IMG/VR virus record: IMGVR_UViG_3300045988_001093
Coordinates: 1 to 6,345 of that record
Source of the DNA: a virus
Reading direction: 5' to 3' (one strand)
Length of the DNA stretch: 6,345 nt
Notes under the pieces: model-generated
What the model was told of the DNA's origin: nothing
Seen by the model: only the letters and a program-made list of their open reading frames with translations
The model's database searches: none
Made by a program: the position numbers and the translations under genes
In this document: positions 1-6,345 of the stretch, piece after piece
Numbering within the stretch: the first letter of the stretch is position 1
Layout of the letters: every line of letters starts with the position of its first letter

Positions 1-55
1 CCAACATCATCAAAAGAATCCGAAGCCTGAGCAAGAGCAAGAGCATTAGATATGA
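1..55. repeat. Terminal direct repeat, copy 1 (circular-contig assembly overlap)
   Basis: Bases 1-55 (ccaacatcatcaaaagaatccgaagcctgagcaagagcaagagcattagatatga) are identical to 6291-6345. The repeat lies inside the capsid reading frame, which stays in frame across the junction. Confidence 0.95.
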
Positions 56-416
56 ACTGCAAAGAAGTATTAGGAACAGAGGTAAGAGACTCAGAATTCT
101 TACTAGCAGAAGCAGCAGAAGTCATATAGTCCGTCATCTGAGTAAATGCTTGCGGAAGCGCACGAGAAATCAAGCGTAACGGCACAGCGTAGAAATCGTA
201 ATACTCTTTAATACGGGTATAAGCAGCTGTATTAACCGGAACAGTACGAGTAAACCAATCAGAAGAAATACGATAACTACTTCCTGGAATAGCAATTTGC
301 CAATAGCAGGGCAAAATCTCACCAACTTTAGCAGTAAAAAGTTTTTTAGAACTCAAATCAAAAGACGAGCGATGAGTATTAATTCGCGCTCGGTCAAGGG
401 GATTAAAATCACTCAT
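1..416 (-). CDS. VP1: Major capsid protein VP1/F, N-terminal part (codons 1-138 plus 2 nt). It continues across the circular junction into 6290..4985.
   Basis: This ORF is absent from the supplied track because it has no in-window stop. Hand translation from the ATG at 416-414 gives MSDFNPLDRARINTHRSSFDLSSKKLFTAKVGEILPCYWQIAIPGSSYRISSDWFTRTVPVNTAAYTRIKEYYDFYAVPLRLISRALPQAFTQMTDYMTSAASASKNSESLTSVPNTSLQFISNALALAQASDSFDDV, with no stop down to base 1. 416 nt + 1306 nt (6290..4985) = 1722 nt = 574 codons, so it joins the 4985..6253 ORF in frame. The FDLS...FTA..G.L.P....PG...R..P....R....F..VP.RL pattern is the familiar N-terminus of Microviridae capsid proteins (recognised from memory). Confidence 0.88.
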   Translation of the reverse strand, partial: MSDFNPLDRARINTHRSSFDLSSKKLFTAKVGEILPCYWQIAIPGSSYRISSDWFTRTVPVNTAAYTRIKEYYDFYAVPLRLISRALPQAFTQMTDYMTSAASASKNSESLTSVPNTSLQFISNALALAQASDSFDDV

Positions 417-432
417 AATCAATTAAATTAAA

Positions 433-2112
433 TTAGACCATACGGTTAAATATATTATTAGAATCATTAAGCTTCTTATGTTTAATCATATCACGACAGA
501 ATGTCGCACTACGGTACCGGAGCTGGTCAAGAAGCTGAATCGTCTCACATGAAACATTCGACAAGACATCCGTCTCGCACCCGCTCTGAGGCAACGCAAA
601 CATACAATCTGATATAAACGGGTTTTTGGCTCGAAGATTGAATGCATCTCGTAGATTTTCATAATCTTTTTTCTTTTCATAATCTATACCTGTTTTAATG
701 ATAAAACTAATGCGACCGGAATAAGCACTAATATCAGAGCCGAAGAGAGGGAGATGCCAATTACGGAAGAATTTATAGACATATAAGAACAACCTATATA
801 ACTTATTAATAAAAGATTCAATATCGACATTACTAGAACAGTTAACAAACCTAGTAAGACACCGAGAAGCATGTAATATAATTTTGTCATCATCAGTAAG
901 AATAGAATTAACCTCGAGATAATTATAATAGGCACGAACAAGACTCAAAATTGAGTCTTGTTTGTAATCAACGAATCCGAACTTAGCAATTCTCTGCGGT
1001 GTTCGGTGAACAGCGAGAAGAATTCGAGCAATCGAAGTAGCATCGTCATTGCGAGCAGACGAGAACCGCGGCAATAAGGTACGGATATACGACAAGGGTG
1101 GAGTGGAGCGAACACTAACGCCAGCGAAGTTGTAGATTCTTCCATTAACGACAGAATCGATTTTTTTTTCAATTTGCGCATAAGGGTCTTCGTCTTCCAC
1201 GAAAGAGCAACCCTTCTCAAAGAATCCGACAGATGCTCTAGATTTGGGTCTAAATGCGCGGCATGTTCTATATAATAAGGGAGCAGAGCACAAGCTATTA
1301 ACGTAGCTCGCAACGTATGAACAAGCTCCACCAGCGGAACGTTGGAAATCTGAACGACCGAGTTTCCAACTCTTATCGTGACAGTGTCGTAAAACTTGGG
1401 CGACTTCGTCCGAGTTTGTGAATAATAAGAGATGATAATGCGGGCGGAAATGTACGGGTCCGTACTCACCCACAGCGTAGAAATGTAACGTTTCATAAGA
1501 ACCTAAACTTTGGAATAAATGTTTACGTAAACGTTTGATATAATTCTGGATATCAACGTAATTTAAGAAGGGAATAAGATTATCACGACCATATTGTGCA
1601 GAAGCGGGATAATCCGTTTTATCAACAGCCTGCGTCTTACTGATAAAACCACGAATAGCATCCATACTAAGAAACCAATTATCCTTAACAGGTACATATT
1701 CCTTAATTTCACGGTCAAACGGCACAGTGCCTTGAACCTGTTCGAAGAATATATGACGCAAGACGGAGTTATCATCACATTGATACTCGGAAACAGGGAT
1801 ATATCGATGATACTCATTGCCAAAATGGATATCTCCCGAAATGCCTAAAGCATCCTCATAATCACTATGGAGAACCTTACAAGACATAAGAGGAATATGG
1901 ACATTGTCATACGTAAGAGTAACAAAATAAGAATACTTGAAAGCACTTCCAGCGGTCTTCACGCGCATGGACGCTTTTTTAGCTTTCTTATGGATACAGT
2001 AATCACATTGACCGCAATCTACAGCAATACGCGCACCAGTGTATTTATTCGTAATAAACGAACGATGTTGACAATGGTCAACAGCTTTAAACAAATCAGG
2101 AGAAAATTTCAT
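433..2112 (-). CDS. VP4: Replication initiation protein VP4 (HUH rolling-circle endonuclease, phiX174 gpA-like), 559 aa
   Basis: The ORF track protein carries all hallmark motifs. These are an N-terminal CGQCDYC zinc-finger-like box, motif I FVTLTY (nt 1909-1926), the KRLRK helix followed by FYAVGEYG, motif II HYHLLLF (HYH = nt 1432-1440), and the tyrosine motif YVASYV (nt 1303-1317). The ATG at 2112 lies 2 nt after the upstream stop. The TAA at 433-435 lies 16 nt before the VP1 ATG. Confidence 0.95.
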   Translation of the reverse strand: MKFSPDLFKAVDHCQHRSFITNKYTGARIAVDCGQCDYCIHKKAKKASMRVKTAGSAFKYSYFVTLTYDNVHIPLMSCKVLHSDYEDALGISGDIHFGNEYHRYIPVSEYQCDDNSVLRHIFFEQVQGTVPFDREIKEYVPVKDNWFLSMDAIRGFISKTQAVDKTDYPASAQYGRDNLIPFLNYVDIQNYIKRLRKHLFQSLGSYETLHFYAVGEYGPVHFRPHYHLLLFTNSDEVAQVLRHCHDKSWKLGRSDFQRSAGGACSYVASYVNSLCSAPLLYRTCRAFRPKSRASVGFFEKGCSFVEDEDPYAQIEKKIDSVVNGRIYNFAGVSVRSTPPLSYIRTLLPRFSSARNDDATSIARILLAVHRTPQRIAKFGFVDYKQDSILSLVRAYYNYLEVNSILTDDDKIILHASRCLTRFVNCSSNVDIESFINKLYRLFLYVYKFFRNWHLPLFGSDISAYSGRISFIIKTGIDYEKKKDYENLRDAFNLRAKNPFISDCMFALPQSGCETDVLSNVSCETIQLLDQLRYRSATFCRDMIKHKKLNDSNNIFNRMV

Positions 2113-2114
2113 AA

Positions 2115-2423
2115 TTACTTGCGTTTATCAATCACTTGGTGACGATTCCGTTTACCAAATGAAATATGAATAAATGCAGGATACAATATCAGTTGGTCAA
2201 ATACATGAACATTATCCGAGTAACTATGAATATGCTCAAGCAACCGACCATAAGTAGTAGAGCCATAAGGCTTAATATCAATAGCCTCTCCAAACAAATG
2301 CTGAGAATTAGGAACACCACCAGCAGCCTTATTGTCAGCAATGGAGCGCTTAGCACTTGTTATCGTAAAATGCAAGTTAAAAGATAACAAATGGTCAAGA
2401 AAACCCATAAGAGCACCATTCAT
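2115..2423 (-). CDS. Zinc D,D- or L,D-peptidase, M15 family (Peptidase_M15_3/4-like); putative cell-wall hydrolase / endolysin, 102 aa
   Basis: ITSAKRSIADNKAAGGVPNSQHLFGEAIDI matches the M15 core SGYRS...N...GG...SxHxxGxAxDI, giving candidate zinc ligands H42 and D49. A C-terminal FIHISF supplies a candidate third ligand, H86. The protein is compact and lacks the usual 30 or so N-terminal residues. Its ATG overlaps the stop of the upstream peptide (ATGA at 2420-2423). Confidence 0.78.
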   Translation of the reverse strand: MNGALMGFLDHLLSFNLHFTITSAKRSIADNKAAGGVPNSQHLFGEAIDIKPYGSTTYGRLLEHIHSYSDNVHVFDQLILYPAFIHISFGKRNRHQVIDKRK

Positions 2424-2503
2424 AATCCAATAGCGTTAAGGATGTAACCAAGAGCGGCAGAAACAGCGCCAATCACAATTTTCCAAATATTATTGTTTTT
2501 CAT
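2420..2503 (-). CDS. 27-aa single-pass membrane peptide (MKNNNIWKIVIGAVSAALGYILNAIGL); holin-like candidate
   Basis: This is the ATG-initiated 3' part of the tracked ORF 2420..2698. It has a polar MKNNN head followed by about 22 hydrophobic or small residues. Its TGA stop overlaps the peptidase ATG. The upstream L-rich part of the tracked ORF is the off-frame reading of the 65-aa ORF and is not believed. Confidence 0.45.
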   Translation of the reverse strand: MKNNNIWKIVIGAVSAALGYILNAIGL

Positions 2504-2687
2504 TGCTTTGAGTTTTAAGTTCAACAAAATTATTTTCTTCTCTAATCGGGTCCACAACAACAATAAGACCCAAAGAAGAAATTCGGTCAGAATAAAGTTC
2601 AAGAACATTAAGAGAATCAACAACAAAAGGCGAAACAGCATCGCGACCAGAAGCTTTTTCTTTAACTGAAATAATAAATTTCTGCAT
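2490..2687 (-). CDS. Hypothetical 65-aa protein (MQKFIISVKEKASGRDAVSPFVVDSLNVLELYSDRISSLGLIVVVDPIREENNFVELKTQSNEKQ)
   Basis: It uses the internal ATG of tracked ORF 2490..2768, whose TTG start at 2768 lies inside the predicted promoter. The codons are strongly T-ending (GCT TCT GGT GAT GTT CCT CTT AAT ATT), as in VP1, which supports this frame over the overlapping L-rich frame. It is the first ORF after promoter P2, with a leader of about 45 nt. I recognise no family. Confidence 0.55.
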   Translation of the reverse strand: MQKFIISVKEKASGRDAVSPFVVDSLNVLELYSDRISSLGLIVVVDPIREENNFVELKTQSNEKQ

Positions 2688-2738
2688 AATTGTAACAAAG
2701 TTTAAAACATTAATAATAATTGTAACTTCTACACGATG

Positions 2739-2769
2739 CAAAGGTATGAGTTTTTTTCGTAGTTCCAAA
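2739..2769 (-). promoter_or_regulatory. Bacteroides-type promoter P2 (TTTG-N19-TACCTTTG)
   Basis: The minus strand reads ATTTGGAACTACGAAAAAAACTCATACCTTTGCATCG. The -33 TTTG sits at 2769->2766, followed by exactly 19 nt, then the -7 TAnnTTTG (TACCTTTG) at 2746->2739. This is a perfect match to the published Bacteroides fragilis sigma-AB consensus. It is positioned to drive ORF65, the TM peptide, the M15 peptidase, VP4 and genes beyond. Confidence 0.6.
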
Positions 2770-2922
2770 TAGTTTCTTTAAAAATTGTGGGGAGAGGACC
2801 ATTTATGATAGAGTGTGAGTTGTGCGTTTATGGACAAGAAGACGGAGAAATTGAGATGATAACTCAATTTTGCTTCGCACACAACTAGGGGCTTCGCTTA
2901 ATTAACAAGTGGATGTATACAG

Positions 2923-3111
2923 GGGTGTATAGGCACGGCAAGGCAGGGACTGACTTGCCTTTGCGCACCTGCGTGCTAAAATACCGGAGCGGGGCGCTCC
3001 TATAAGGAAGTCGCTCCGCTCCGTTTTTCGACCAAGCCCTACGCGGGCGGCGGGTGTATATCGCTCAAACGCCGCGATGGGCTTCTAGTCCTGAAGGATG
3101 CTATTACACCC
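2923..3111. other. GC-rich structured island (candidate ssDNA origin element, structured RNA or foreign insertion)
   Basis: By hand count, 2931-3090 has 98/160 G+C (61%) and 3121-3280 has 50/160 (31%). The helices are nested and do not cross:
- P1: 2923-2932 with 3101-3111 (GGGTGTATAG / CTAtTACACCC, 10 bp with one bulge).
- P2: 2938-2945 with 2956-2964.
- P3: 2965-2968 with 2973-2976.
- P4: 2985-3000 with 3006-3023.
- P5: 3034-3053 with 3061-3084.
No long ORF is present on either strand. Confidence 0.6.
2985..3028. terminator. Long GC hairpin with flanking A/T tracts; candidate bidirectional intrinsic terminator (helix P4 of the island)
   Basis: CGGAGCGGGGCGCTCC-TATAA-GGAAGTCGCTCCGCTCCG forms about 16 bp, with 8 contiguous Watson-Crick pairs at the base, one G-T pair and two 1-nt bulges. 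On the plus strand TTTTT follows directly (3024-3028). On the minus strand GTATTTTA follows, and AAAA precedes the hairpin at 2978-2981. The plus orientation is the more canonical one, which is odd because all genes are on the minus strand. Confidence 0.5.
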
Positions 3112-3256
3112 GAGGATAGAGAGAATAACTGTAAGAACAATCCAATAGAGAAGGGGATGTTTGCCATAGATTAATCCATTCAACACAGTTTTCCAATGTT
3201 CCAACCTTTGAAAAAACGACTTTACGTCCAAGTTTGATTCTTAATTCGTAATACAT
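3104..3256 (-). CDS. Possible 50-aa ORF (MYYELRIKLGRKVVFSKVGTLENCVEWINLWQTSPSLLDCSYSYSLYPRV)
   Basis: Hand-translated and below the track length cutoff. The ATG at 3256-3254 sits in a TATTATG context like the other genes, about 30 nt downstream of promoter-like P1. The TAA at 3106-3104 lies in the closing stem of the GC island. Composition is not low-complexity, but the T3 codon bias is weaker than in the sure genes. I recognise no family. Confidence 0.3.
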   Translation of the reverse strand: MYYELRIKLGRKVVFSKVGTLENCVEWINLWQTSPSLLDCSYSYSLYPRV

Positions 3257-3288
3257 AATATATAAGTTTTTGGTTCTTTTCTGTATTA

Positions 3289-3322
3289 CAAAGATACGAA
3301 ATAGTTTGCAAAGTACAACAAA
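3289..3322 (-). promoter_or_regulatory. Bacteroides-type promoter candidate P1 (TTTG-N22-TATCTTTG)
   Basis: The minus strand has a perfect -7 octamer TATCTTTG (3296->3289). The nearest suitably placed TTTG (3322->3319) is 22 nt upstream, one more than the 19-21 consensus spacing. It lies just downstream of the VP2 terminator and upstream of the 50-aa ORF. Confidence 0.4.
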
Positions 3323-3363
3323 GTTGGAGTTAAAGAGTGTTTAGTAAATGTTAATAAATGTAC

Positions 3364-3395
3364 AAAAAAATTTTCCCCCACTTCGTGGGGGAAAG
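3364..3395 (-). terminator. Rho-independent terminator after VP2
   Basis: The minus strand reads C-TTTCCCCCAC-GAA-GTGGGGGAAA-A-TTTTTTT, a perfect 10-bp stem with a 3-nt loop followed by a T7 run. It begins 24 nt after the VP2 stop codon. There is no T-run in the plus orientation, so it is unidirectional. Confidence 0.8.
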
Positions 3396-3418
3396 AGAAT
3401 AGATTTAGAATCCTGAAT

Positions 3419-4534
3419 CTATTTACGACCAATAGAATTACCAATACCTTGAAATATACGAGTGCCATAATCTACAGCATTCCGTAATTCATAAGAATCA
3501 ACGTCCTTCTGTTTATGCTTAGAAGACCATTTATAATAATCACGAAGAGCCTTATCCTTAGAATACTCAATATTCTTAAGGACATTGGTATTTTTCGAAT
3601 CCCATAATGAAGATAGACCTCGGGCACGGTTAGACTGAATATTTGCATAAATCAAAGAATCAGCGGTCTGAGAAGCAATCCTATTGTTAATTCGAATACC
3701 ATTGGTTTCAGCGGCAGTCTTAACAGCCTTAGCCATTTCAGATTTATATTGGGCTTCCGTAAGAGAACCTTGCGAGTACAGATTAGCAAGTGTCTGACCC
3801 TTAATAAATAGATCAGCTTGTTGTTGTTCATCCAGATATTTATTAAGTACCTGTTGGGCTTCAGAGTCAAGCAGAATCTGTGCCTCTTGAGCCGACGTAA
3901 GACGACCTGCAAATTCCATATTCCTAAGCTCCTGATATTCTTTAGACTGGTCCAATAGAGCAGAACGTCTACCAGTAGAAGCGTTCCAATAACCAGACTG
4001 ACCAACACCGATATTACGATAATTGGTATCACCAAGAATCTGGTTGATACGGTAGGGGGTAAGAGCAGCATTCTGTTCCGCGTTAATCATCGAAGCACGA
4101 GCCTGAGCCATAGAAGCGAGAGCAGAACCAACATCAGAGAAATCAGGACGGAATGCCTGCAAACTAGGAGGAGAACCAGCAGAAGCAGCAGCACCACCAG
4201 AAGCAGGAGATTTAGAAACACCAGCACCAGTAGAAGAACCGATAAATGGATTAAGACCTCGGGAAATCATAGCCTGAGGAGAATTATACTCATTATTCTT
4301 ATTCCACATCTGTTCTTGCCAATCACGCTGAAGTTGAGCCTGTTCAGCATTAAACTTATTATTCATCTCAGCAATCTCCTTGGAAGTCTCATTGGTTTTA
4401 TTCTGAGACGAAGCACCAATAGCATTACCAGCCAAAGAAGCACCAGCAGCAATAATACCACCAAGGACAAGCGGAGCAATATGCTTTTCGGAATGCCCCA
4501 TTAAGGGGCTTTCTCCAATATCATAAAACCTCAT
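3419..4534 (-). CDS. VP2: Minor capsid / DNA pilot protein VP2 (phiX174 gpH-like), 371 aa
   Basis: It has a Gly/Ala-rich hydrophobic N-terminus (IAPLVLGGIIAAGASLAGNAIGA). Next comes NNKFNAEQAQLQRDWQEQMWNKNNEYNSPQAMISRGLNP, which matches the FNA.EAQ..RDWQE.M.N......Q......GLNP signature I associate with microvirus VP2 proteins. After that comes a G/A/S/P-rich linker and a Q/A-rich, probably coiled-coil, C-terminal half. The ATG at 4534 overlaps the upstream TGA (ATGA). An alternative ATG at 4501 (MGHSEK...) follows a GGAGAA. Confidence 0.8.
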   Translation of the reverse strand: MRFYDIGESPLMGHSEKHIAPLVLGGIIAAGASLAGNAIGASSQNKTNETSKEIAEMNNKFNAEQAQLQRDWQEQMWNKNNEYNSPQAMISRGLNPFIGSSTGAGVSKSPASGGAAASAGSPPSLQAFRPDFSDVGSALASMAQARASMINAEQNAALTPYRINQILGDTNYRNIGVGQSGYWNASTGRRSALLDQSKEYQELRNMEFAGRLTSAQEAQILLDSEAQQVLNKYLDEQQQADLFIKGQTLANLYSQGSLTEAQYKSEMAKAVKTAAETNGIRINNRIASQTADSLIYANIQSNRARGLSSLWDSKNTNVLKNIEYSKDKALRDYYKWSSKHKQKDVDSYELRNAVDYGTRIFQGIGNSIGRK

Positions 4535-4974
4535 TGAGCAGAAGCGTCAGGGGCGGGCGACGAATCGGGCGCTGACTTTTGCTCGGCCAACATAGCTTCG
4601 GCATAAGCCGTCAATTCAGATTTTTCACTAGCCAATTGCTGAAGAACAGCCTGACGTTCAGACATTGTCTGACAATGCCGTGAAATAACACATTTAAACC
4701 GCTCCTCATCAGTCATACCATCCATAACAGTAGACTGAGTAGGATGCATCTGTGCAATAATATTCTGAACATTCATATCACCAAGTAAATTACGGTATTT
4801 TTCCTGATTCAGTAAGATTTGAGTCATATCAGCCTGAATCAAATCACCATCAGGAGTTTCGTCATACATAACCGAATCATAAACAGAAGGACTATAACAC
4901 GGATTGTCCTCAACACTAACAGGAACATATTCATCCTGAATAAAATCAAGGTTTTTATAAGCAAAATCTCTCAT
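4531..4974 (-). CDS. Hypothetical 147-aa acidic protein between VP1 and VP2 (possible internal scaffolding protein, judged by size and position only)
   Basis: Tracked ORF 4531..4980 begins TTG-ATT-ATG, so I place the start at the ATG at 4974 (MRDFAYKNLDF...). That is 10 nt after the VP1 TAA, and the upstream context is nearly identical to that of VP1. Codons are T3-biased and the stop overlaps the VP2 start. The function is a guess. Confidence 0.75.
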   Translation of the reverse strand: MRDFAYKNLDFIQDEYVPVSVEDNPCYSPSVYDSVMYDETPDGDLIQADMTQILLNQEKYRNLLGDMNVQNIIAQMHPTQSTVMDGMTDEERFKCVISRHCQTMSERQAVLQQLASEKSELTAYAEAMLAEQKSAPDSSPAPDASAQ

Positions 4975-4984
4975 AATCAATCAA

Positions 4985-6345
4985 TTAAAAAGGTAAACCA
5001 TTTCTATCCAAATTTTGAACAGCATATACTTGAAAATTAACATTACACAACAACTGGTCATAAGAAACACCTGAGTTAGTGCCAGAGACCTGAGGCAGAA
5101 ATATAGGGTTCAATTGTTGAGGGCGAACTTTCATAGACTGATAAGTAAAAGTACCAGAAGAAGTCAGCACATCCCAACCATCAAGAGGAGCAGACCACGA
5201 ATGATAGGAAAGACCTTTACGGAAACCAGCGTGAACGGTATCAATAGAAGACTTCCACTGCCAATAGCGAAGATTATATCCTAAAGAACCATTAGCGACA
5301 CGGGATTTATCATTAATAAGATTAAGAGCAGGAACAGGTTGCATACCAAGTTGGTCAAATGCAGGCTGCGGAAAATCAGAAACGGAAGTAACAGTTAACT
5401 GAGGAGCTTGACCAGACACATCCCAGTCAAGCATAGGTACAGCATGATAAACGCACATAATTACCTGATGTTCTGCGCCACAAGAATAGGTAATAGTATG
5501 ACCTGAATTAGAGCCAATACCTTTACCAGCAATACTAGCCTGTGATTCTTGCGTATCAAGATTAGTATTAACCACTTCATTAATATTAATAACATTGGAC
5601 CAGCCTCCAATATAATGAGAATGATTACCCATATACTCGGGAGCCTTAATACCAAACTGGGCAGCCATCTGGTCTGAATAATCCTTACTACTGAATTGTA
5701 CTACTTCTTTCCAACGCTGGAGATATTCGGTTGCACGAATTGAGAGGGCGGAAAGGTCAGAATTAAGAGTAACAGGAGTAGTAGCAGAAACAGATTCCGT
5801 CATAGAAACATCACCTGAACCTACTTTCTGATATAAATAAGAATTATTACGGGCGTCAGAAACAATACGGTTAGAAATATAAGCAGGAGCAAACGAAGAC
5901 GGCAAAACAGCTACCGAACCATACTGAGAATTAGGAAGCATGCCCATGAAATAATCTTTAGGATAGTTCGCATAACGAAGTTTAAACATATCAGGAGACA
6001 AGGCTAATTGTGACTTACCATCCCAATAATCTACATTATAAGAATAAGCGAGATGTTTTTCCCATTGGGAATTGCTGAAAAAATCATAGTAAATTTTCTG
6101 ATAAGCAAGCAAAGGAAGAAGATTCACAACCTGCGAAACTCTATAAACCAATGGATTCTTATCATCAGTAGAAGGAGAAAAACCTAAATAAGCTTTAGAA
6201 ATCGCGGCTTTAGAAGTATTATCCGATGCAATAAACGAACCATAACTTAACAAATCAAGAATTTTACAAGCACCATAGGAAAACGGAAGTCCAACATCAT
6301 CAAAAGAATCCGAAGCCTGAGCAAGAGCAAGAGCATTAGATATGA
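4985..6345 (-). CDS. VP1: Major capsid protein VP1/F, C-terminal part (unique sequence 4985..6290; 6291..6345 duplicates 1..55)
   Basis: The tracked ORF 4985..6253 begins at a TTG only because the caller needed a start codon. The frame is open all the way to the window edge and continues at 416..1. This is a large protein with a Microviridae capsid-like N-terminus (see feature 1..416). The TAA stop is at 4985-4987. The joined length is 573 aa. Confidence 0.9.
   Translation of the reverse strand, partial: ISNALALAQASDSFDDVGLPFSYGACKILDLLSYGSFIASDNTSKAAISKAYLGFSPSTDDKNPLVYRVSQVVNLLPLLAYQKIYYDFFSNSQWEKHLAYSYNVDYWDGKSQLALSPDMFKLRYANYPKDYFMGMLPNSQYGSVAVLPSSFAPAYISNRIVSDARNNSYLYQKVGSGDVSMTESVSATTPVTLNSDLSALSIRATEYLQRWKEVVQFSSKDYSDQMAAQFGIKAPEYMGNHSHYIGGWSNVININEVVNTNLDTQESQASIAGKGIGSNSGHTITYSCGAEHQVIMCVYHAVPMLDWDVSGQAPQLTVTSVSDFPQPAFDQLGMQPVPALNLINDKSRVANGSLGYNLRYWQWKSSIDTVHAGFRKGLSYHSWSAPLDGWDVLTSSGTFTYQSMKVRPQQLNPIFLPQVSGTNSGVSYDQLLCNVNFQVYAVQNLDRNGLPF
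6291..6345. repeat. Terminal direct repeat, copy 2 (circular-contig assembly overlap)
   Basis: Identical to bases 1-55. Confidence 0.95.

Follow-up and report, generated by a model that had tools for sequence, protein, structure and literature searches.

A conserved 27-residue peptide of predicted membrane character, encoded directly before an M15 peptidase, as the candidate core of a microvirus lysis module

By what means do microviruses outside the phiX174 group lyse their hosts? The E protein of phiX174 inhibits MraY, and the lysis mode of microviruses outside that group is not established. The question is raised by the IMG/VR virus record IMGVR_UViG_3300045988_001093 (positions 1 to 6,345; the whole 6,345-nt stretch is referred to as the window), in which a gene for a 102-residue M15 peptidase (2115..2423, minus strand) is directly preceded by a small open reading frame (ORF) of 27 codons plus stop (2420..2503, minus strand). 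This ORF, designated pep27, encodes MKNNNIWKIVIGAVSAALGYILNAIGL. A sequence-only reading had interpreted the pair as the holin-endolysin logic of tailed phages in miniature. The present analysis suggests that pep27 and the peptidase may form a two-gene lysis module with the peptide as its core, a reading to which a probability of about 45% is assigned.

Judged by its pattern of codon change, pep27 is a genuine, strongly conserved protein-coding gene under purifying selection. It was present in all of the first 34 relatives compared, even where the peptidase had diverged to 66% identity, and it ended at an ATGA junction in 199 of 203 testable loci carrying the short peptidase, a count in which some contigs were fetched more than once. 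At three of the other four loci pep27 ended 6 nt upstream, and at the fourth (mar56), which had been flagged as missing the peptide, it was found at a slightly shifted annotated start. The small ORF accordingly preceded the short peptidase in every relative that could be tested, among which 93 distinct pep27-plus-peptidase nucleotide variants were counted. Column entropy, taken over the 20 pep27 codons free of overlap with other genes, was 0.223, 0.016 and 0.768 at the first, second and third codon positions, respectively. The 31 distinct nucleotide sequences of pep27 encoded 19 peptides, and the codon for Ser15 had changed from TCT to AGT in two genomes. The pooled pairwise ratio of non-synonymous to synonymous substitution (dN/dS) was 0.07-0.09 for pep27 and 0.22 for the peptidase, which, on this estimate, places the constraint on the peptide about three-fold above that on the enzyme.

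A 27-codon ORF could also be untranslated and owe its conservation to a signal in the nucleic acid itself, for instance a DNA element or a site where ribosomes load to translate the peptidase. The ORF is indeed very short, and it is annotated by no gene caller or public record. A signal of this kind does not account for third codon positions that are free while second positions are frozen, for 31 nucleotide sequences that collapse into 19 peptides, for the serine codon switch and a dN/dS of 0.07, or for a diverged clade (described below) that retains the properties of the protein and not the nucleotide sequence. The untranslated reading is effectively refuted by the codon-position pattern. The lack of annotation reflects a gap in the databases: pep27 is missed by gene callers and was unannotated in every public record examined. 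In GenBank PP511396 and PP511453 (Dulem viruses 226 and 238), a 124-residue 'peptidase' coding sequence (CDS) is annotated at 1138-1512 from an upstream ATG and crosses the small peptide gene in the wrong frame (METHYWSRLRSS...), which looks like a start-site misannotation due to the unrecognised small gene. The peptide had no Pfam match at E<=1 and no PHROG match at E<=0.1, and a tblastn search of it against phage records gave matches only in 35 microvirus records, all belonging to this microvirus group.

Hydropathy analysis of pep27 gave a best Kyte-Doolittle 19-residue window of 2.01 at residues 9-27, and the only charged residues, K2 and K8, are both N-terminal. The peptide is hence predicted to be a single-pass membrane peptide with its N-terminus inside and the transmembrane segment extending to the C-terminus. 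The C-terminus itself (...NAIGL) lies within the hydrophobic segment, and a hydrophilic, charged C-terminal domain is absent. Small residues (Gly, Ala, Ser or Thr) are found 5, 12 and 19 positions after the tryptophan (W+5, W+12 and W+19), along with Asn/Gln at mid-membrane. No comparable hydrophobic segment was detected in the peptidase or in the upstream ORF65 by the hydropathy scan, and pep27 is the sole membrane-type gene product of the genome. Along with the coding signature and the conservation in relatives, these features agree with the sequence-only reading that a real, membrane-type ORF directly precedes the peptidase.

The same arrangement was observed in a second clade, consisting of Dulem viruses 236 and 257, bajarodmic virus 1134, Microvirus mar62 and six IMG/VR contigs, in which the peptidase shares only 40-47% identity with that of the window. 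A diverged peptide of 28-29 residues, MKSETKSKIWSAIIAAAVSLLTSIAQIFS or MKAETKSKLWAAIISALVSLLSNLANIL, was found at the same place in 10/10 of these genomes. All versions of the peptide share a conserved Trp, an amide residue (N or Q) at W+16 and a helix end 18-20 residues past the Trp; small residues occupy W+5, W+12 and W+19 wherever the peptide reaches that far. An equivalent adjacent transmembrane peptide was not found in microviruses with full-length M15_3 peptidases of 138-149 residues (L041-L047), and the hydrophobic off-frame ORFs dispersed through these AT-rich genomes were considered to carry no information. Short hydrophobic ORFs do occur elsewhere in such genomes (L043, 317-439; L044, 347-469; L045, 1236-1385), and an annotated hydrophobic ORF of 40 residues after VP2 in bajarodmic virus 66 is one such example; those of the three contigs may or may not be functional counterparts of pep27.

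The stop codon of pep27 (TGA, 2422..2420) overlaps the start codon of the peptidase (ATG, 2423..2421) in an ATGA tetranucleotide (2420..2423, minus strand), as had been described before. Among the first 34 relatives, 32 had ATGA and two had GTGA at this junction. In the second clade the stop codon is TAA or TAG and lies 3 nt before the ATG, except in mar62, where the two genes overlap as ATGA. Lysis cassettes often contain start and stop codons that overlap, and the ATGA overlap is typical of termination-reinitiation coupling. The conserved overlap therefore suggests that pep27 and the peptidase are translationally coupled in this manner, so that the output of the peptidase would follow that of the peptide.

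It was also considered whether recoding, by frameshift or stop read-through, could join both ORFs into one endolysin of the signal-anchor-release (SAR) type, with the peptide as export signal. The peptide does resemble a signal-anchor or SAR segment, having a Lys-containing N-terminus followed by a Gly/Ala/Ser-rich hydrophobic stretch, and it occupies the place of the missing N-terminal part of the enzyme. The frame relation, however, is not constant: in the main clade and mar62 the peptidase lies in the -1 frame with ATGA, while in the rest of the second clade it is in frame behind TAA or TAG plus one codon. In most genomes a stop codon in the peptidase frame is present 15 nt upstream of the ATG, the four codons thus left before the ATG hold no slippery heptamer, and the peptide is retained in genomes that have no enzyme to export. 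With both TAA and TAG in use, and a stop codon that ends the peptide conserved in every genome compared, fusion by recoding was rejected as very improbable.

Contigs with the peptide and without the enzyme were obtained by searching IMG/VR microvirus contigs with a degenerate DNA pattern for the peptide core. Six such contigs were found, none with a peptidase match anywhere on it. All six carry VP1, the VP3-like gene, VP2, VP4 and ORF65 and have the order ORF65-peptide-VP4, in which the peptide stop is followed by a spacer of ~45 nt and then by the VP4 start; one of them, L088, is a complete genome because it has a 99-nt terminal repeat. The six peptides differ from one another and therefore went on evolving under constraint. 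Five of the six contain ...GYILS... and five of the six end in ...IGV. In a neighbour-joining tree of VP4 the six contigs were scattered among peptidase-bearing genomes. Since they share a homologous 45-nt spacer, a single origin followed by recombination is as likely as repeated loss of the peptidase; five of them also share the same C-terminal changes in the peptide. The converse, a short peptidase without the peptide, was never seen among the fetched loci. The peptide thus always accompanies the short peptidase, yet it also occurs in six contigs without it. Going by this distribution, pep27 is the conserved core of the pair and the peptidase its dispensable, optional partner. Survival of the peptide without the enzyme therefore implies a function independent of the enzyme, with the peptidase as a putative, optional accelerator.

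The 102-residue protein matched Pfam Peptidase_M15_3 (PF08291) with 37.7 bits against a gathering cut-off of 23.2 (E=2.4e-9) and PHROG 894 'endolysin' with E=1.5e-14, and PF08291 was carried by all 120 homologues among the matches listed. The motifs SAKRS, NSQHLFGEAIDI and FIHIS, quoted earlier as an M15 signature, are present in it. The predicted zinc ligands H42, D49 and H86 were invariant in a 24-sequence alignment reaching down to 39% identity, as were R26, N31, D76, Q77 and S88. H42 and D49 align with the S-x-H-x-x-G-x-A-x-D motif of 1LBU. The AlphaFold2 model, built from a shallower alignment without GenBank-derived sequences, had a mean predicted local distance difference test score (pLDDT) of 86.9, and its top Foldseek matches in the PDB were the Zn DD-peptidase 1lbu (probability 1.00) and the phage T5 L-Ala-D-Glu peptidase 2mxz (0.93). 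The match to solved structures was moderate (template-modelling score ~0.45, E=3e-3), and 30 matches at E<=1e-3 in BFVD were dominated by M15A peptidases. Taken together, profile, alignment and predicted structure indicate that the protein is an M15_3/M15A-type (MEROPS M15A-like) zinc peptidase of the LAS fold, which is in agreement with the fold and the ligand triad expected beforehand.

The N-terminal truncation suspected in this enzyme was confirmed. The Pfam match covers positions 38-107 of the 108 in the model, the N-terminal third of the model being absent. Representatives of clusters at 50% identity are mostly 125-150 residues long and have ~30-35 additional N-terminal residues, the window protein aligning from about residue 18 onto about residue 50 of these longer forms. 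The short form is itself conserved, as seen from its dN/dS of 0.22. The hydropathy scan revealed no signal peptide, signal-like N-terminus or transmembrane segment in the peptidase. The serine following the third ligand His, flagged earlier as HIS in place of HVD, is present as stated. It does not indicate a dead enzyme, and that notion was rejected, as H-x-S is the norm of the subfamily: among 150 cluster representatives, 90 read H-x-S, 16 H-x-G and two H-x-D. H-x-S was always accompanied by a D-Q-h-I-x-Y motif ten residues upstream (D76-Q77 in the window protein), and D76 may replace the usual acidic residue in catalysis.

An M15 peptidase in Microviridae is already known, and the sequence-only reading was right to expect that the enzyme alone would not be new. 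Genes of the M15_3 family were identified in 11 human-associated Alpavirinae/Gokushovirinae genomes, and an endolysin role was proposed for them; an 'unknown' ORF was adjacent in 5/11 genomes, and a small membrane peptide was not mentioned (Roux et al., 2012; PMC3394797). Later surveys treated microvirus peptidases as sporadic, lysis-associated accessory genes (PMC9239249; PMC11499846), and overprinted genes were omitted by Kirchberger et al. (2022; PMC9239249). The window enzyme is like the published ones in its Pfam family (PF08291), in its association with Alpavirinae-like viruses of the human or animal gut and in the horizontally acquired endolysin role proposed for it; in GenBank relatives of 70-81% nucleotide identity the gene is already labelled 'peptidase'. 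It differs in that the published descriptions are of the enzyme only, and in its short form of 102 residues as against the 138-149 residues, without a peptide, of other lineages. No membrane partner of microvirus M15 peptidases was described in the literature searched. Full-text literature searches and the key microvirus papers likewise contained no mention of pep27, of its invariable association with the short enzyme, of the stronger constraint on it or of its retention where the enzyme is missing, and these findings appear to be new.

Among tailed-phage endolysins, the 'endolysin endopeptidase' of Stenotrophomonas phage Siara and the enzyme of Burkholderia phage KS9 showed 37-44% identity to the window peptidase over ~80 residues, and the Siara homologue heads a cassette of endolysin, holin, holin, i-spanin and o-spanin. 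The H-x6-D...H ligand pattern is common to the window peptidase and LAS/M15 enzymes (1LBU of Streptomyces albus; 2MXZ, the L-alanoyl-D-glutamate peptidase of phage T5). The window subfamily differs in reading D-Q-h-I-x-Y...F-I-H-I-S in place of G-G-h-G-x-Y...F-V-H-h-D, and the window protein also lacks about 35 N-terminal residues.

The membrane component resembles several known lysis proteins without falling into any of their classes. Holins of the single-transmembrane class III type and the pinholin S21-68 are, like pep27, small membrane proteins encoded upstream beside a muralytic gene, and the Gly/Ala-rich helix of pep27, suited to helix-helix packing, is a further holin-like feature. Known holins are ~60-220 residues long and typically possess a hydrophilic, charged C-terminal domain, whereas pep27 is far shorter at 27 residues, lacks such a domain, matches no holin family and is endolysin-free in six relatives. 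Pinholins act with secreted SAR endolysins, while the window enzyme has no export signal. With SAR endolysins themselves the pair shares a weakly hydrophobic, Gly/Ala/Ser-rich, N-in helix directly before a muralytic domain; the helix here is, by contrast, a separate polypeptide with a conserved stop codon and a frame relation that varies between clades. Like phiX174 E and levivirus M LysM, the latter a 37-residue MurJ inhibitor (PMC12506998), pep27 is a small membrane protein with a single helix, encoded by a phage with a minimal genome, and stands alone in some relatives. No sequence similarity to them was detected in Pfam or PHROGs; unlike them, pep27 is not embedded in another gene and is normally coupled to a muralytic enzyme, such an enzyme being encoded in the window genome and absent from six relatives. 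The pair may consequently be described as a putative lysis cassette whose membrane component is a micro-peptide that fits no established class.

It is the retention of the peptide by some relatives after losing the peptidase that makes pep27 a better candidate than the peptidase for the lysis gene of this group. The peptidase has no export signal, and it should therefore need a membrane-acting partner to reach the murein. The most likely role of pep27, as far as its sequence and distribution indicate, is that of a lysis peptide acting on the membrane, to which an accessory endolysin is coupled. Late in infection, the block ORF65-pep27-peptidase-VP4 would be translated as a chain, and a ribosome ending pep27 at its TGA would re-initiate at the overlapping ATG, tying the output of the peptidase to that of the peptide. 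The peptide would insert in the cytoplasmic membrane with its N-terminus inside, self-associate through its small-residue face (W+5, W+12, W+19) and its mid-membrane Asn/Gln, and compromise the membrane. The signal-less 12-kDa zinc peptidase could then reach the murein, cut peptide stems or cross-links and hasten lysis, as a dispensable accelerator gained by horizontal transfer. Membrane insertion, oligomerisation and lytic activity of either protein are all putative, and hole formation, the block of a host membrane enzyme and a role other than lysis are each candidate modes of action for the peptide.

Several observations weigh against such a lysis module. The peptide is only marginally hydrophobic, a Hessa-type scale placing it at roughly +1.6 kcal/mol; it has no charged C-terminal tail, and no match to a holin or lysis family was found for it in Pfam or PHROGs. 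We know of no 27-residue peptide that opens lesions large enough for a 12-kDa enzyme. A spanin-like gene for disruption of the outer membrane is absent from the genome. Microviruses with full-length peptidases have no equivalent adjacent peptide, and the enzyme therefore appears able to use other partners. Adjacency of genes is weak evidence of a functional link in a 6.3-kb, nearly spacer-free genome, and the genomes with the peptide alone would fit a role outside lysis just as well. Of the holin-endolysin logic proposed for this locus, the M15 enzyme, the genuine membrane-type ORF and the conserved ATGA junction hold; the mutual dependence of the two genes is not supported, in view of the six peptide-only relatives, the stronger constraint on the peptide, the lack of a holin family, the missing charged tail and the marginal hydrophobicity.

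The peptide-only genomes are also what would be expected if pep27 were a small membrane protein without any part in lysis, for instance a burst-size modulator like phiX174 K, a superinfection exclusion protein, a peptide that modulates some membrane protein of the host or one that takes part, at the membrane, in DNA delivery or assembly, its position beside the enzyme having arisen from genome compactness and insertion of the peptidase before VP4. Many bacterial peptides of <50 residues with one transmembrane helix regulate larger membrane proteins, the peptidase fills exactly the gap between peptide and VP4 as an insertion would, and no lysis-family signature was found in pep27 in Pfam or PHROGs. 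Such a role does not readily explain why the ATGA overlap is kept in 199/203 testable loci or why the pair stays together in all 10 genomes of the diverged second clade. It would also leave a signal-less enzyme that needs a membrane partner with no other candidate gene in a 6.3-kb genome, in which no other lysis gene is identifiable. A role outside lysis is accordingly regarded as unlikely, though still a serious contender.

Distinctly unlikely, though not fanciful, is that pep27 lyses the host as a 'protein antibiotic', its helix inhibiting a membrane enzyme through which the host supplies lipid II, so that growing cells burst at the septum, with the peptidase merely dissolving the wall after rupture. 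To our knowledge, no single-gene lysis protein (Sgl) is paired with a muralytic enzyme, yet an enzyme is coupled to the peptide in most of the genomes here. The extreme constraint on the helix, with near-invariant second codon positions, would fit a specific helix-helix interface, and the genomes that carry the peptide alone are in line with a single-gene mode of lysis. Two of the three criteria applied to Sgl candidates of ssRNA phages, an ORF length of 25 codons or more and the presence of a transmembrane domain, apply to pep27 (PMC7693330), and its size and topology are close to those of LysM (37 residues, target MurJ; PMC12506998). Similarity to E or LysM was not found in Pfam or PHROGs, and pep27 is not overprinted on another gene, unlike most Sgls. 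Known Sgl targets are MurA, MraY and MurJ (bioRxiv 10.1101/2023.10.16.562596); the target of pep27 is not inferable from its sequence.

The module with the peptide at its core remains the preferred reading, and a bolder form of it may be advanced tentatively: the 27 residues of pep27 alone could suffice for killing and lysis of the host. The peptide would act either by forming pores, as the smallest holin-like protein known to do so, or by inhibiting a membrane enzyme involved in cell-wall synthesis, in the manner of a protein antibiotic. It would then be the lysis gene so far missing from a large group of gut microviruses that are Alpavirinae-like and probably infect Bacteroidota, and the M15 peptidase a later, optional and translationally coupled add-on. 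If pep27 is lytic on its own, it would rank among the smallest phage lysis proteins and could reveal a new target at which the envelopes of Bacteroidota are vulnerable. The pair would show a 6-kb ssDNA phage joining a minimal membrane effector to a borrowed endolysin. In either case the conserved peptide provides a concrete candidate for microvirus lysis that can be tested by simple expression.

The window has a G+C content of 39% and a 55-nt terminal direct repeat (positions 1-55 and 6291-6345); because of this redundancy it represents a complete circular microvirus genome of 6,290 nt. All genes are on the minus strand. The major capsid protein VP1 (573 residues) starts at 416 and crosses the window ends to 4985, which is the reason why ORF lists give only a 422-residue fragment of it. 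A 149-residue protein (4980..4531, minus strand) was named 'VP3-like' from its position alone; relatives have an ORF of similar size at this position, annotated only as 'hypothetical protein', and VP3 denotes the internal scaffolding protein in the nomenclature of Kirchberger et al. (PMC9239249). The pilot protein VP2 (4534..3419, minus strand) is followed by a gap of ~650 nt and then by ORF65 (2490..2687, minus strand; 65 residues), to which no function is assigned. The replication initiator VP4 (433..2112, minus strand) was recognised by profile searches and gene order. The start of pep27 lies 14 nt inside the 3' end of ORF65, and VP4 starts 2 nt past the peptidase stop (TAAttATG); owing to these overlaps and the 2-nt spacing, ORF65, pep27, the peptidase and VP4 form a single gap-free chain.

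The nearest public genomes are gut or faecal microviruses of 70-81% nucleotide identity, from dog faeces (MG945488) and from lemur ('Dulem viruses'), with identical gene order. Relatives of VP1 in bacterial genome contigs were only two, both in Prevotella metagenome-assembled genomes and at 25-26% identity. Alpavirinae have been placed on Bacteroides and Prevotella (PMC9239249). The host is probably a member of the Bacteroidota; the Prevotella matches fit the Alpavirinae literature and are suggestive only, without proving the host.

ORF65 encodes a soluble protein of 64-66 residues in relatives, with 1,030 homologues, all of them unnamed. Its gene invariably lies just before that of the peptide, also in genomes that lack the peptidase, and its membership of a lysis module is uncertain. 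AlphaFold2 predicted a beta-beta-alpha-beta fold with a disordered acidic tail (pLDDT 79). A significant structural match of this model was not found in the PDB, and the idea of ORF65 as a recognisable lysis regulator was dropped on that ground.

A 50-residue ORF at 3104-3256 (minus strand; MYYELRIKLGRKVVFSKVG...) resembles a 'hypothetical protein' CDS of Dulem virus 254; it is doubtful as a gene because in most relatives the sequence around it shows gaps or does not align. Between VP2 and ORF65, a non-coding block of ~270 nt (window ~2815-3095) showed 85-95% identity across 68 distinct relatives, a conservation that exceeds that of the protein genes. No Rfam match and no tRNA were found in this block. 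On the coding (minus) strand it contains several predicted hairpins, in which 14 of 56 pairs showed compensatory double changes. The block may be a complementary-strand (ssDNA) replication origin or a structured RNA. In some relatives an extra insert of ~25-30 nt is present in the block (alignment columns ~190-216); it is palindromic in several of them, e.g. CTAGATCCATTACTAATAGATCTAG, and would add a hairpin.

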